Source: an uncultured Planctomycetia bacterium (GTDB lineage: Bacteria; Omnitrophota; Gorgyraeia; Velamenicoccales; Velamenicoccaceae). From it: a stretch of 64,000 bases of DNA. Position 1 is the first letter of the stretch, and every line of letters starts with the position of its first letter. The notes beneath the pieces are model-generated. The model searched no databases, was not told where the DNA came from, and saw only the letters and a list, made by a program, of their open reading frames with translations. Positions 57,537-59,531 of this stretch are shown here, piece after piece. The stretch covers positions 20,879 to 84,878 of the forward strand of contig CAYYFL010000008.1 in NCBI GenBank assembly GCA_964471325.1, in the 5' to 3' direction. The position numbers were made by a program, and so were the translations under genes.

Positions 57537-57617
57537 AAAATGACCTGTTCTTGATTTTGCAGTTTTTGTTTGGCCGCAGTAAGTAAGTCCTCCTTTTTTT
57601 TCCTCGCCAAAAATACT

Positions 57618-57820
57618 CAAGGCTTTAATTTCGTCAACAAAATTCAGGAAATAATTCGTCTCCACTCTTGTGGTCTGCCTCAAGAGTGACGTGTCCCTTC
57701 GGGGAGTCCTCAATTTTTTCCTCGAATCCAGGAAGGTTCGCTTACTCCATCCGTCGTTCGCTCTCCTTCGGCCAAGCCCTGTTTTATTGACTAAACCGCC
57801 GTTTGTGGTCTGCCTCAAAC
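57618..57820 (+). repeat. structured intergenic module, copy A
   Basis: Direct repeat of 58990-59190. Contains two hairpins with the invariant loop TGGTCTGCCT (57657-57691, 57800-57821). Confidence 0.85.
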
Positions 57821-57870
57821 GCCTTTAAAGGCCTTGAGTTGCTTTTTGGCGTAAAAGAAAGGAGGACCAC

Positions 57871-58176
57871 ATGCGTCCAAGAACAAAAAAACAGGAACAA
57901 AATCAAGAAAGGAAGGAGGTGAGCAAGATGTTCGAAGTCTCCAGGATCCATCGTATCGAAGGAAACGATACTCTGAAGGCCTTTGTGGATATCAAAGTCG
58001 CTGACAGCGTTTTGATCAAAGGCTTGAGGGTCATGGCCGGCAAGAATGATACCTTGTTCGTCGCCATGCCGTCCCAGAAGGCGGAGGATGGCAAATACTA
58101 TCCTACCGTCAAGCCTCTTACCAAAGAGGCTAACCAAGAGCTGCAGGATGCAGTTCTTGCTGCCTATAACGAATAG
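57871..58176 (+). CDS. spoVG: SpoVG-family nucleic-acid-binding protein with possible 19-aa basic N-extension
   Basis: MFEVSRIHRIEGNDTLKAFVDIKVADSVLIKGLRVMAGKNDTLFVAMPSQKAEDGKYYPTVKPLT follows the SpoVG consensus. Both ATG 57871 and ATG 57928 have strong SD sequences. Confidence 0.8.
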   Translation: MRPRTKKQEQNQERKEVSKMFEVSRIHRIEGNDTLKAFVDIKVADSVLIKGLRVMAGKNDTLFVAMPSQKAEDGKYYPTVKPLTKEANQELQDAVLAAYNE

Positions 58177-58275
58177 GCAGTGAAAAAAGCTGCGCTATCG
58201 GCTATACGGGCACTTTAAAAAATCAAACCCAAGGCTAAAATTCCTTTTCTTTTTTTCCGCGATATCTTAATTAAA

Positions 58276-58308
58276 AACCCTCTGCAATATAAATTTTTGC
58301 AGAGGGTT
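58276..58308 (-). terminator. rho-independent terminator (minus strand; possibly bidirectional)
   Basis: AACCCTCTGCAA / TTGCAGAGGGTT 12-bp perfect stem, 9-nt loop. On the minus strand it is followed by TTTTTAATTAA. Confidence 0.65.
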
Positions 58309-58351
58309 GGAAAATTAAGCTCCACTATTATTCAAATCGCTCTTGCGCTTA

Positions 58352-58510
58352 TTAGGGCTTTCGCAATACCTGGCTCGCAGATATCTTTACCACTTTCTCA
58401 TTCCGCCACACCGTTAGAGGCCGTCCACTGCGTTTGTGGTCCTCAACGACCTCTCGAACCGCTTCTTTGAGCGCCCTAAAAGCCTTTGCCTGCATAGTTT
58501 TTTTGGTCAT
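58352..58510 (-). CDS. small protein (52 aa) partnered with zeta-like ATPase genes
   Basis: Manual translation: MTKKTMQAKAFRALKEAVREVVEDHKRSGRPLTVWRNEKVVKISASQVLRKP. It starts 5 nt after the ATPase stop. I recall this type of small ORF next to zeta-like AAA ATPases. Confidence 0.4.
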   Translation of the reverse strand: MTKKTMQAKAFRALKEAVREVVEDHKRSGRPLTVWRNEKVVKISASQVLRKP

Positions 58511-58514
58511 TGCC

Positions 58515-58754
58515 TTACCTCAATGTTCTCATTATTTTTTCAAATAAAACTTTATCAAGGATCTCTGTTTTGCCGTTTTTTTCCTGTGCGATCAATCGGG
58601 GCACGGCATCGGCATTATTAAACAACAGCCACGTATCTGCCAATGGTTTATAGTAGCTCAAACATTTCGCGTAATCAGGCAAAAACTTCTTCGCAAATGT
58701 CGTCTTGCCGGAGCCGTTCGGGCCGGCGATGACATAAACATTTTTGGTTTTCAT
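58515..58754 (-). pseudogene. internally deleted zeta-toxin-like P-loop ATPase remnant
   Basis: N-terminal VYVIAGPNGSGKTTFAKKF is joined directly to a C-terminal-type tail ADTWLLFNNADAVPRLIA. It is 79 aa against about 190 aa in intact family members. Confidence 0.55.
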
Positions 58755-58779
58755 GCGTTAAAATTATATCTCAAAGAAA

Positions 58780-58812
58780 AACCTCCTGCAACAAATTATG
58801 ATGCAGAGGGTT
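58780..58812 (-). terminator. terminator-like hairpin, paralogous to 58276-58308
   Basis: AACCTCCTGCA / TGCAGAGGGTT (one mismatch). On the minus strand it is followed by TTTTTCTTT. Confidence 0.45.
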
Positions 58813-58946
58813 AGAAAATCAGCTCTTCCAGAGGAGCTCAAAGAGAAAGATCGGCAAGTTAAGCTCTTGCGGCCTGACGCGCCTTTTTATCCCTCAGCAC
58901 CCTGTTTCTCACCGTCTTTGTCGTTTTCTTTCCTGGTTTTTCAGGT

Positions 58947-58978
58947 ATGGCTTCGTCTCCTTTCTGTTTGTTTTCGCT
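58947..58978 (-). repeat. inverted copy of the RBS/start region of gene 59247 (anti-RBS arm of module B)
   Basis: ATGGCTTCGTCTCCTTTCTG(TTTG)TTTTCGCT is the reverse complement of 59221-59248 apart from a 4-nt insertion. Weaker similarity continues to about 58850. Confidence 0.85.
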
Positions 58979-58989
58979 TTTGTAACCGT

Positions 58990-59190
58990 AAGCCCTGATT
59001 TTCGTCAATAAAATCACGAAAATAATTCGTCTCCGCTTTTGTGGTCTGCCTCAAAAGCAGCTTCGCCCCTTCGGGGAGTCCTCAATTTTTTTCGCGACCC
59101 AGGAAGGCTCTCGCGCTCCGTCCGTCGTTTGTTCGCCTTCGGGCAGGCCTGTTTTTTTGACAAAAACCGCCGTTTGTGGTCTGCCTCAAC
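58990..59190 (+). repeat. structured intergenic module, copy B
   Basis: Direct repeat of 57618-57820, with hairpins at 59035-59058 and 59167-59194 carrying the same loop TGGTCTGCCT. Confidence 0.85.
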
Positions 59191-59246
59191 CGGCTTCAGG
59201 CGCTTAGGTTAAATTCTCCAAGCGAAAACAGAAAGGAGACGAAGCC

Positions 59247-59531
59247 ATGAAAAACACGAACAAGAAAGAAAACGAACAAAAATTCGACGAAGGGGTGTTG
59301 AGGGCTGACGGCTGCATGATGAGGCATAACCAGCCGCGTCAGGCGGAATTCCGGACGCGCGAAGAGGATTTTCCCGAATCTTCCTTCGGAAAGTCAGCGT
59401 ACTGGGAAGAGAGAAGACTGCTCAACCGCGTCCATGAGCTCATGGCTATGGGTTTTAAGATCAGGCCTGAGCAAACCCTGGAAGAGTTTGTCCAGGCGCA
59501 TGAGGATGCGTTTACAGAGGAGGCGCTATGA
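59247..59531 (+). CDS. hypothetical protein (94 aa)
   Basis: GAAAGGAG RBS. The N-terminal K/N/E/Q-rich leader (MKNTNKKENEQK) is similar to the optional leader of the spoVG-like gene (MRPRTKKQEQNQ). Confidence 0.45.
   Translation: MKNTNKKENEQKFDEGVLRADGCMMRHNQPRQAEFRTREEDFPESSFGKSAYWEERRLLNRVHELMAMGFKIRPEQTLEEFVQAHEDAFTEEAL

Follow-up and report, generated by a model that had tools for sequence, protein, structure and literature searches.

The window, by which we mean the whole 64-kb stretch of DNA analysed, comes from a member of the Omnitrophota, a phylum with few cultured members to which the predatory ultramicrobacterium Velamenicoccus belongs, and contains a conjugative element with palindromes at its probable entry end. 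F-type type IV secretion system (T4SS) genes occupy 26-52 kb of the window, the right end of the element is the site of an island of palindromic modules, and beyond ~62.6 kb there are no element genes. The modules and all genes downstream of them are co-oriented with the T4SS genes, as the leading genes of plasmid F likewise are with its tra genes, and in five genomes from three genera traC lies 16-28 kb upstream of the modules in the same orientation. We infer that the module-bearing end is the leading end of the element and that the minus strand is the one transferred. Some elements run counter to the assumption of minus-strand transfer, for example ICEBs1, which reportedly transfers the gene-sense strand. 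A search for an oriT found none, searches of the genome for the canonical relaxase families TraI_2, Relaxase and TrwC gave no hit, and the only relaxase-like candidate seen is a Replic_Relax protein which adjoins the coupling protein. The window carries no tRNA genes and so offers no integration-site marker, a search to the right of the element turned up no integrase, and no primase gene was recognised within it.

Two modules, A and B, were delimited around the starts of a SpoVG-like gene, which has a second in-frame start at 57929 with its own Shine-Dalgarno (SD) sequence, and of a 94-aa gene. Their parts are:

57544-57912, minus strand: palindrome A, a long interrupted hairpin that makes up the whole module ahead of the SpoVG-like gene (DNA fold, inverted repeat I1)
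57610-57637, minus strand: left arm A, with TTGACG (57637-57632), 16 nt and TATTTT (57615-57610), from a consensus scan; proposed non-template strand of a single-strand promoter
57643-57726, no strand assigned: P2 helix A, 57643-57656 with 57712-57726, A/T-rich and in the position of an UP element
57657-57691, plus strand: H1 of module A, apical 16-mer at 57668-57683 (fold, covariation)
57694-57705, plus strand: H2 of module A, TCCC-TTCG-GGGA, then conserved AGTCCTCAA (fold)
57729-57781, plus strand: H3 branch of module A, a right-arm insertion between P2 and P1 (fold)
57782-57795, plus strand: right strand of P1, with TTGACT at 57787-57792, pairing with 57629-57642 (fold)
57798-57823, plus strand: H4 of module A, apical 16-mer at 57803-57818 (fold, covariation)
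57825-57912, plus strand: right arm A, with spacer helix P0, a poorly paired -10 region, GGCG and an A-rich leader
57858-57865 (SD), 57871 (ATG) and first codons, plus strand: gene start in right arm A
57871-58176, plus strand: SpoVG-like gene (PF04026 match, residues 25-101)
58872-59344, minus strand: palindrome B, the whole module upstream of and into the 94-aa gene
58979-59008, minus strand: left arm B, with TTGACG (59008-59003), 18 nt and TACAAA (58984-58979)
59028-59065, plus strand: H1 of module B, apical 16-mer at 59039-59054
59066-59076, plus strand: H2 of module B (fold)
59157-59162, plus strand: TTGACA of right arm B
59169-59194, plus strand: H4 of module B, apical 16-mer at 59174-59189
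59247-59531, plus strand: 94-aa gene, function not assigned, the first of a string of DUF6876/ubiquitin-like cassette genes

Each pair of H1 and H4 sits inside one imperfect palindrome of 370-470 nt, whose tip is made by H1 and H2. The downstream gene has its ribosome-binding site and first codons in the right arm; the left arm mirrors this sequence past the SD and into the open-reading frame, but is itself non-coding. Left-arm open-reading frames were rejected as real divergent genes, being short, unconserved or without a start. Folded as DNA, palindrome A reaches -88.3 kcal/mol (z -10.3) on the minus strand and -76.6 kcal/mol (z -6.9) on the plus strand; the minus strand of palindrome B, which contains the inverted repeats I2 (23 nt, 100%) and I3 (28 nt, 82%), folds at -102 kcal/mol. 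Helix P2 encloses H1 and H2 and has five pairs changed on both sides, and because it covaries, the T-run after H2 is identified as its 3' strand. H2 was also considered as an intrinsic terminator or attenuator and rejected: the T-run starts 9 nt past the stem and pairs with the upstream A-run in P2, and H2 was not called in a terminator scan. The H3 branch varies between families, and helix P1 is 94% paired over 17 modules.

Four copies of TTGTGGTCTGCCTCAA, all on the plus strand as the first-pass annotation had claimed, form the apices of H1 and H4 in both modules, against 0.03 expected (0 of 100 shuffles reached four). Allowing up to two mismatches revealed no extra copies in the window, the whole 1.9-Mb assembly has no TTGTGGTCTGCCTCAA outside these four, and among the 51 TGGNNTGCCT sites in the genome the hairpin context occurs at the module copies only. 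The complementary flanks reported for three copies were found as described (CACTC/GAGTG plus CGT/ACG; GCTT/AAGC; CGT/ACG), whilst two details required correction: what had been taken for a bulge in the fourth copy is a T.C mismatch (CCG-t-TTG / CAA-c-CGG), and the supposedly open 10-nt loop is probably not open, its inner GG and CC being able to pair. In TTGTGGTCTGCCTCAA the apex probably has a T.T mismatch followed by two G-C pairs and capped by a TCTG tetraloop. The core common to the homologues is TGG-NN-TGCCT, in which the T.T mismatch and two G-C pairs lead up to an NNTG tetraloop; the H1/H4 apex reads AGGCA-NN-CCA on the minus strand.

Exact matches to TTGTGGTCTGCCTCAA in the genome contig set numbered 118, only the Omnitrophota loci being homologous; about 110 were discarded as single chance occurrences in unrelated phyla, and a pattern scan of viral contigs for the hairpin returned nothing. 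The homologue set comprised 38 distinct hairpins from Omnitrophota genomes and metagenomes. Both modules are also present in Velamenicoccus archaeovorus of the LiM enrichment culture, at about 638.6-639.8 kb of NZ_CP019384. Compensatory stem changes around a constant apex, as previously proposed, exceeded chance by a wide margin in the homologue set: 91.6% of cells were paired against 68.5% when shuffled, the covariation score was 0.569 against 0.144 (0 of 500 shuffles as high), all eight variable pairs showed changes on both sides, and slid registers of the alignment gave at most 65% pairing. The earlier suggestion is supported to the extent that selection acts on a hairpin formed in single-stranded nucleic acid, the apical sequence of which stays constant. 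A double-stranded operator bound as direct repeats whatever the structure, which the same annotation had named as the refuting alternative, would account for the fourfold core and the weakly palindromic halves TTGTGG/CCTCAA, but it is excluded because the stems covary, differing in sequence and length yet remaining complementary, with a closing pair that takes all four Watson-Crick forms (G-C 27, C-G 7, A-T 1, T-A 1); we leave it next to no probability.

The same test was extended to whole modules. The arms covary by module type: the score of the winA right arm (module A of the window) is 102 with its own left arm and 61 with that of B. The winA fold, imposed on 17 modules, gives 78% pairing against 73.4% shuffled, with 44 pairs changed on both sides where 31 were expected (0 of 500 shuffles) and at most 58% pairing in slid registers. 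It is very unlikely, in our judgement, that the palindromes are decaying inverted duplications of a promoter plus gene start, with arms kept alike by gene conversion and only the small hairpins functional. Degenerate copies of the SD and first codons in the left arms are what such a duplication would leave behind, but at least 10 genomes spread over several families share the architecture, compensatory changes are specific to the arms, the insertions are always confined to the right arm, and the folding strand bias is consistent.

Which strand is folded was addressed by comparing the two. The H1/H4 stems alone carry no strand signal, as ~357 stem pairs include four G.T/G.U pairs on the plus strand and three on the minus. 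Across whole modules, DNA parameters favour the minus strand in 20 of 20 (by 6.1 kcal/mol on average) and RNA parameters do so in 17 of 20, and arm mismatches are G.T in 51 cases on the minus strand versus 20 on the plus, a bias that is moderate and comes from related sequences. The gap upstream of plasmid F ssb (reported Frpo2), folded as a control for strand asymmetry only, gave the same sign (template strand -121.4 vs. -112.0); the published -35/-10 boxes of F Frpo2 could not be placed by eye in that fold.

These results bear on an RNA leader, in which the plus strand is transcribed through read-through or from an unrecognised promoter, the SD and start codon are hidden by pairing with the left arm, and H1/H4 as RNA hairpins (U.U, two G-C, NNUG tetraloop) are bound by, for example, a SpoVG-like regulator of translation or RNA stability. 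SpoVG proteins are reported to bind RNA. The helices form on the plus strand too, the SD and AUG of module B lie within a 22-bp perfect helix, every hairpin copy is on the gene-sense strand, and the H2 and H3 loops are often UUCG, a tetraloop favoured in RNA. Against this, G.U pairs make up only ~1% in H1/H4 and 1.5% in whole-module folds, the plus strand is the less stable as given above, H2 is no canonical terminator, Rfam covariance models at gathering and permissive thresholds have no match in the modules, and a conserved plus-strand promoter upstream of the palindromes is absent (13 of 22 modules have none), whilst fixed promoter-like boxes on the opposite strand are left unexplained. The evidence leans towards minus-strand DNA over RNA, and we regard the leader as unlikely, though the most serious competitor.

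The promoter-like boxes lie in the left arm, whose minus strand reads as an uninterrupted UP-like / TTGAC / 16-18 nt / TAnnnT-like promoter. In 19 of 20 modules it agrees with the promoter consensus at 8-9 of 12 bases, with a spacing of 16-18 and in the same position, where the -10 hexamers are only moderately consensus-like and the consensus may not fit Omnitrophota promoters. The right arm is interrupted by the H3 branch and by H4, which begins 3-5 nt past its TTGAC (a few bases past TTGACT in module A) and contains its best '-10', without A2/T6; a -10 within the H4 loop was rejected, as its distance from TTGAC shifts with stem length. All 17 of the 17 modules have the -35 TTG paired in helix P1, whereas pairing of the -10 columns is seen in just 6-14 of them.

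We therefore hold, with moderate confidence, that the palindromes are single-strand DNA promoters of the Frpo/ssi type whose sequence class is new and in which H1 and H4 are branches that fold on themselves and bear a recognition loop. One hallmark of such promoters, a long imperfect inverted repeat folding on the template strand of the downstream genes, is present; a second (-35/-10 boxes in the stem, 16-18 nt spacing, direction towards the gene, weak -10 pairing) is recognised by consensus matching. During conjugation the minus strand, template of these genes, would enter the recipient alone and fold into a rod, in which the left arm would provide the uninterrupted non-template strand: the UP-like P2, TTGAC, a 16-18-nt spacer and the TAnnnT-like hexamer, which would face the least-paired part of the rod, and then GGCG, the A-rich leader and the SD. 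In module A the transcript would be expected to begin near GGCG, at about 57847-57851. The right arm would be the template, continuing into the SpoVG-like gene or the 94-aa gene, with H4 and the H3 branch as insertions in this arm only and H1 and H2 as a forked tip. Because it folds on itself, H4 would leave the pairing of the single-strand arms undisturbed; in double-stranded DNA it would push the rightward TTGAC and the matching -10 position 26-40 bases further apart, and the rightward promoter would therefore be off. We infer both this on/off role of H4 and the promoter activity. Two points count against the reading: the left arm in double-stranded DNA would also act as a leftward promoter, and some modules are incomplete, L149 and L161 being without H4 and L174 without the whole P1-H4 stretch.

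A single-stranded minus strand could also be put to uses other than transcription of these genes. H1/H4 may be ssi/sso-like priming sites or complementary-strand roadblocks for second-strand synthesis, read by primase, RNA polymerase or helicase and not parts of gene promoters, a proposal we find distinctly doubtful. The hairpins are strand-specific and limited to the element, and ssoA origins have a short conserved sequence in a hairpin loop. Frpo RNA is reported to prime DNA synthesis too, and the stem of an F single-strand DNA promoter stalls complementary-strand synthesis (bioRxiv 10.64898/2026.01.09.698686). However, the element is without a recognised primase gene, CS-6 (TAGCGT/A) occurs on neither strand of either module, a pure roadblock could do without a constant loop, and the fixed SD distance and mirrored SD/open-reading frame start indicate gene expression. 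Highly improbable is a site for a strand-specific DNA enzyme, for example an HUH nickase/relaxase or a recombinase whose substrate is a folded single strand. Such an enzyme would be suited by a hairpin that is strand-specific and has both a constant apex and a mismatched pair, in a mobile element that has no recognisable integrase or canonical relaxase, but four direct sites in 1.5 kb within promoter-like palindromes would cut the element apart, and no copy lies near the Replic_Relax and coupling-protein genes or the element ends.

The single-strand promoter reading has several precedents. Frpo and class 1-3 single-strand DNA promoters are large stem-loops which rebuild -35/-10 boxes and are inactive as double-stranded DNA (PMC9849209, PMC11541004, PMC12672017), class 1 comprising Frpo1/Frpo2 of F and ssi1-3 of ColIb-P9/pESBL (Masai and Arai 1997; PMC9849209; PMC12672017). 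Like Frpo/ssi, the modules are imperfect palindromes of several hundred bases, directly upstream of and co-oriented with putative early genes of a conjugative element, with a stem that rebuilds promoter-like -35/-10 boxes and two copies per element; their template strand folds better than the sense strand, as it does in the F ssb gap. They differ in being hosted by an Omnitrophota integrative element, in a stem that runs through the SD into the open-reading frame, and in having self-folding template-arm branches and a tip hairpin with one constant apical sequence. We know of no Frpo with self-folding branches and a constant apex. Module A had no blastn match among 72,556 plasmids, and the modules have no sequence similarity to known Frpo/ssi or to class 2/3 promoters, hence they represent at most a new class. 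Unrelated sequences can act as single-strand DNA promoters (PMC11541004, 2024); those promoters were recognised by the criteria applied here, namely a hairpin together with -35/-10/UP boxes ahead of genes in the leading region, but belong to Proteobacteria/Firmicutes plasmids and have mapped starts in pESBL, whereas the modules here are known from sequence alone. With ssoA the modules share, putatively, a strand-specific folded single strand read by RNA polymerase; ssoA, however, is not coupled to the SD of a gene and is not the mirror of a gene start. Lambda boxB/nut sites are likewise small hairpins with a constant loop and free stem, repeated before separate operons of one element, but H1/H4 are embedded in a DNA palindrome with G.U almost absent, and no N-like arginine-rich protein was identified.

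The promoter model accounts for H4 as a self-folding insertion and not for the constancy of the H4/H1 loop. The constant apex would most simply be a docking site for one sequence-specific factor. As no such hairpin exists in the host chromosome, the gene for this factor probably lies in the element. A more specific version, that an element-encoded protein, with the SpoVG-like product as candidate, docks on the apex of the incoming strand and gates the single-strand promoter, is speculative and in our view improbable; it could switch the folded promoter by feedback or stabilise it while the strand enters, and the candidate would be made from module A itself. In three other genomes, G317, G045 and G269, the 1.5 kb around the SpoVG-like genes contains no hairpin of this kind, and the co-occurrence neither supports nor excludes the SpoVG-like protein as partner. 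A complementary RNA partner had been suggested too, but no loop complement stands out in the element, the search giving two unstructured chance sites in coding DNA. Other readings of the loop were dropped: kissing with H3 (GGCANNCC vs. GGNNTGCC), since NN does not covary, H3 is variable and its CC is taken by the CAGG/CCTG closing helix; a sigma-54 site, whose GG-to-GC spacing is wrong by inspection; and a DnaA box, as CCACA appears only when the closing pairs happen to be TTG/CAA.

Single-strand DNA promoters allow conjugative elements to express protective genes ahead of second-strand synthesis, and to our knowledge they have so far been demonstrated only in enterobacterial plasmids. If the promoter reading is true, the same device exists with a different sequence in an integrative element of the Omnitrophota, with two added features: self-folding insertions that break the promoter in double-stranded DNA, and a constant apex which implies a dedicated reader. 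If the protein-gated version were also true, it would add a control layer not known for Frpo-type promoters and give mobile-element SpoVG homologues a first function. The SpoVG-like gene, the 94-aa gene and the DUF6876 and ubiquitin-like cassette would, on the promoter reading, be 'first-minutes' genes of this element family.

The window contains exactly four copies of the 16-mer TTGTGGTCTGCCTCAA against 0.03 expected from shuffles, all on the plus strand and where the first-pass annotation had placed them; an assembly-wide search (1.9 Mb, 62 contigs) allowing up to two mismatches found no more. These copies are not independent but belong to two homologous modules that share 84% identity across ~200 nt and are spaced 1371 nt apart, each with a strong SD and ATG ~50 nt past its end:

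57544-57912: palindrome A (module A), upstream of a SpoVG-like gene (PF04026 match)
At least 58908-59302, or 58872-59344 with inverted repeat I3: palindrome B (module B), upstream of a 94-aa gene that has DUF6876 and a ThiF/JAB cassette after it

An exact scan for the 16-mer in one genome per species returned mainly single chance matches, and the multi-copy or homologous loci were confined to Omnitrophota; the complete Ca. Velamenicoccus archaeovorus LiM genome was among those carrying them. Further modules came from blastn within the phylum, a search with the 94-aa protein and one metagenome pattern scan, giving 22 distinct modules and 38 distinct hairpins in total. The ungapped alignment of these hairpins (H1 at the palindrome tip and H4 in the right arm) has an invariant T-GG-NN-TG-CC-T apex, where NN is TT, TC, GT, GC, GG or TG and A is never present. 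The constancy of the H4 loop is unbiased, since H4 played no part in module selection; the H1 motif was used in selection, yet modules recovered by BLAST or protein search carry it too. The stems vary in sequence and length (6-14 bp, some bulged) whilst complementarity is kept: 91.6% of alignment cells are paired versus 68.5% in shuffles and at most 65% in slid registers, both sides have changed at all eight variable stem pairs, and the covariation score is 0.569 versus 0.144, a value reached by none of 500 shuffles. The closing pair is seen as G-C, C-G, A-T and T-A. This complementary variation, with four forms of the closing pair, establishes the selected hairpin with covarying stems that had been proposed. 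dsDNA operators are an unlikely account of the modules, and an operator blind to structure is ruled out by stems that remain complementary despite sequence change. The "10-nt loop" of the first-pass annotation holds as a constant apical sequence but probably not as an open loop, as GG can pair with CC inside it, leaving a predicted T.T mismatch and NNTG tetraloop.

The hairpins of each module are parts of a palindrome with two mirror-image arms: the region after the second tip hairpin, H2, aligns with the reverse complement of the region before H1 over ~110-170 nt. From P1, a helix containing TTGAC, these arms pass through the spacer helix P0, then the SD and start codon, and reach 15-30 codons into the ORF, with the following order on the plus strand:

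First part: left arm (mirrored ORF start and SD, P0, P1, P2), TCGTCTCC, H1, H2, P2'
Second part: H3 branch, P1' with TTGAC, H4, P0', a poorly paired stretch, GGCG, A-rich leader, SD, ATG

Every insertion (H3 and H4) interrupts the right arm, leaving the left arm unbroken. We rejected the left arm as a gene, as its mirrored "ORFs" are only 1-74 codons long, are not conserved and often lack a start codon; module B has ATA where the mirrored ATG is expected. The T-run behind H2 was likewise rejected as a terminator tail, as it pairs with the A-run ahead of H1 in helix P2, which covaries between families. Imposing the fold of module A on an alignment of 17 modules left 78% of cells paired versus 73.4% in shuffles (none of 500 as high) and at most 58% in slid registers, with both-side changes at 44 pairs versus 31 expected. 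Right arms score near 100 against the left arm of their own type, versus ~60 against the other type in the same genome. At 57871-57930 the SpoVG-like ORF has two in-frame starts, each with an SD: the first SD and ATG are within the palindrome stem, and the second start (57929) is just beyond it.

The left arms share a promoter-like layout on the minus strand, which reads, 5' to 3', A/T-rich P2, a TTGAC-like box (TTG invariant), a 16-18 nt spacer and a hexamer (for example TATTTT, TATTGT, TACAAA, CATTAT or GATAAA), and then GGCG, an A-rich run and an SD-like sequence; a consensus scanner flagged TTGACG-16-TATTTT at 57637-57610. On the plus strand the right arm retains TTGAC; the site expected for its -10 falls within H4 and lacks the A2/T6 signature in every case. 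In the folded rod the -35 TTG is paired in all 17 modules, and pairing is weakest in the -10 columns (paired in 6-14 of 17 modules). Published Frpo and class 1-3 promoters are large stem-loops which rebuild -35 and -10 (and UP) boxes, active on ssDNA and silent after conversion, a description that matches the palindrome geometry seen here. If the minus strand folds, the modelled arm geometry is that required of an Frpo-type promoter: the left arm would act as non-template strand, the right arm as template running on into the gene, and transcription would be expected to begin near GGCG, giving an mRNA whose leader is short, A-rich and unstructured.

Folding with DNA parameters made the minus strand more stable in 20 of 20 modules (mean difference 6.1 kcal/mol), and with RNA parameters in 17 of 20. 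The arm mismatches include 51 that would be G.T wobbles on the minus strand versus 20 on the plus; the counts are drawn from related sequences and so are not independent events. The stems of H1 and H4 are uninformative as to strand. The plasmid F gap ahead of ssb (the reported Frpo2 site) served as a rough positive control and favours the template strand (-121.4 versus -112.0), an asymmetry of the same sign. An RNA leader that buries the SD is a possible alternative, but the folding bias favours the wrong strand for RNA, no conserved plus-strand promoter was found upstream of the modules, and this reading does not account for the constant promoter boxes on the other strand. G.U pairs are also nearly absent: G.T pairs make up 1.5-2.2% of all pairs and ~1% in H1/H4, unlike typical structured RNAs.

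The window carries an integrative conjugative element (25700-62600) of the F-type T4SS kind, which also has a type IV pilus set. Its recognised genes include:

TraG_N, Replic_Relax protein, coupling protein, TraE, TrbI, TraC
Secretin/T2SSE/T2SSF pilus set; TraU, TraF, TraH

A low-GC cargo island follows the transfer genes, then both modules and their genes, all on the plus strand. A co-oriented traC is present 16-28 kb upstream of the modules in five genomes from three genera. DNA left of ~25.7 kb and right of ~62.6 kb looks chromosomal, so the excised circle joins the module-bearing end to the TraG_N/Replic_Relax end. In plasmid F the leading genes are co-oriented with the tra genes, with oriT in between; by analogy, the minus strand would be transferred, with the right end entering early. 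We infer this polarity, as searches for an oriT and for canonical relaxases (TraI_2, Relaxase, TrwC) recognised none. The 255-aa Replic_Relax protein, from a family in the PD-(D/E)XK superfamily (PMC3424549), is encoded beside the coupling protein and is a candidate for the relaxase role. No integrase was found in the contig DNA right of the element, the region searched. An A/T-rich inverted repeat (25743-25765/26184-26206, 23 nt, 83%) lies at the left border, overlapping the TraG_N start. Two related elements (58262-58315 and 58766-58819, 76% identical), each a G+C-rich hairpin flanked by an A-run and a T-run, look from their sequence like bidirectional terminators; they flank a minus-strand P-loop NTPase, perhaps a broken gene, that is split into two short ORFs (58515-58754 and 58352-58510). 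Nicking or recombination sites are an unlikely reading of the modules, whilst a priming or roadblock role on the transferred strand, functions known for Frpo, is compatible with a single-strand promoter.

The strand-specific hairpins H1 and H4 covary around a constant apex, and hairpins of this type were found only within modules, both in their own genome and at the homologous loci examined. H1 forms the palindrome tip with H2, and H4 is inserted 3-5 nt past the right-arm TTGAC. In the single strand H4 would have to fold on itself for the arms to zip, and in dsDNA its 26-40 bp would separate the rightward -35 from the -10, so that rightward transcription would be limited to the single-stranded state. 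H4 is not indispensable, as two modules lack it and one lacks the entire P1'-H4 stretch, and its folding does not by itself account for the constant apex, which needs a further explanation. As such hairpins are absent from the host chromosome, a reader of the apex is more likely encoded by the element than by the host; the SpoVG-like protein would be a candidate on position and fold family only, and SpoVG-like genes without such hairpins occur in other genomes.

TGG...TGCCT-like loops persist in a more distant element family (G395), beside a TTGACA and an inverted repeat that contains an SD: loci L177/L183 (G395:C10) have the variants T-AGG-GC-TGCC-T and C-TGG-GGGA-TGCC-T, and the 94-aa homologue there has two SpoVG-like genes no more than 3.5 kb away. 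Locus L176 (G378:C28), in a distant element family, has another hairpin ahead of its 94-aa homologue, a perfect 19-bp inverted repeat containing TTGACA, with TTGACA-16-CATAAT on the opposite strand of the left arm; judged by sequence, it may be an independent ssDNA-promoter-like design before the same gene family. Locus L157 (6767-6955, metagenome contig Ga0194113_10013980) carries three constant-apex hairpins in one module, a tandem pair at the tip and one at the H4 position.

The ssDNA promoter is a known kind of element; in the ssDNA-promoter literature examined we found no description of this sequence class, of an Omnitrophota host or of constant-apex branch hairpins. SD burial in any read-through RNA would be a side effect of the palindrome, one that would help to silence the genes in the double-stranded element.
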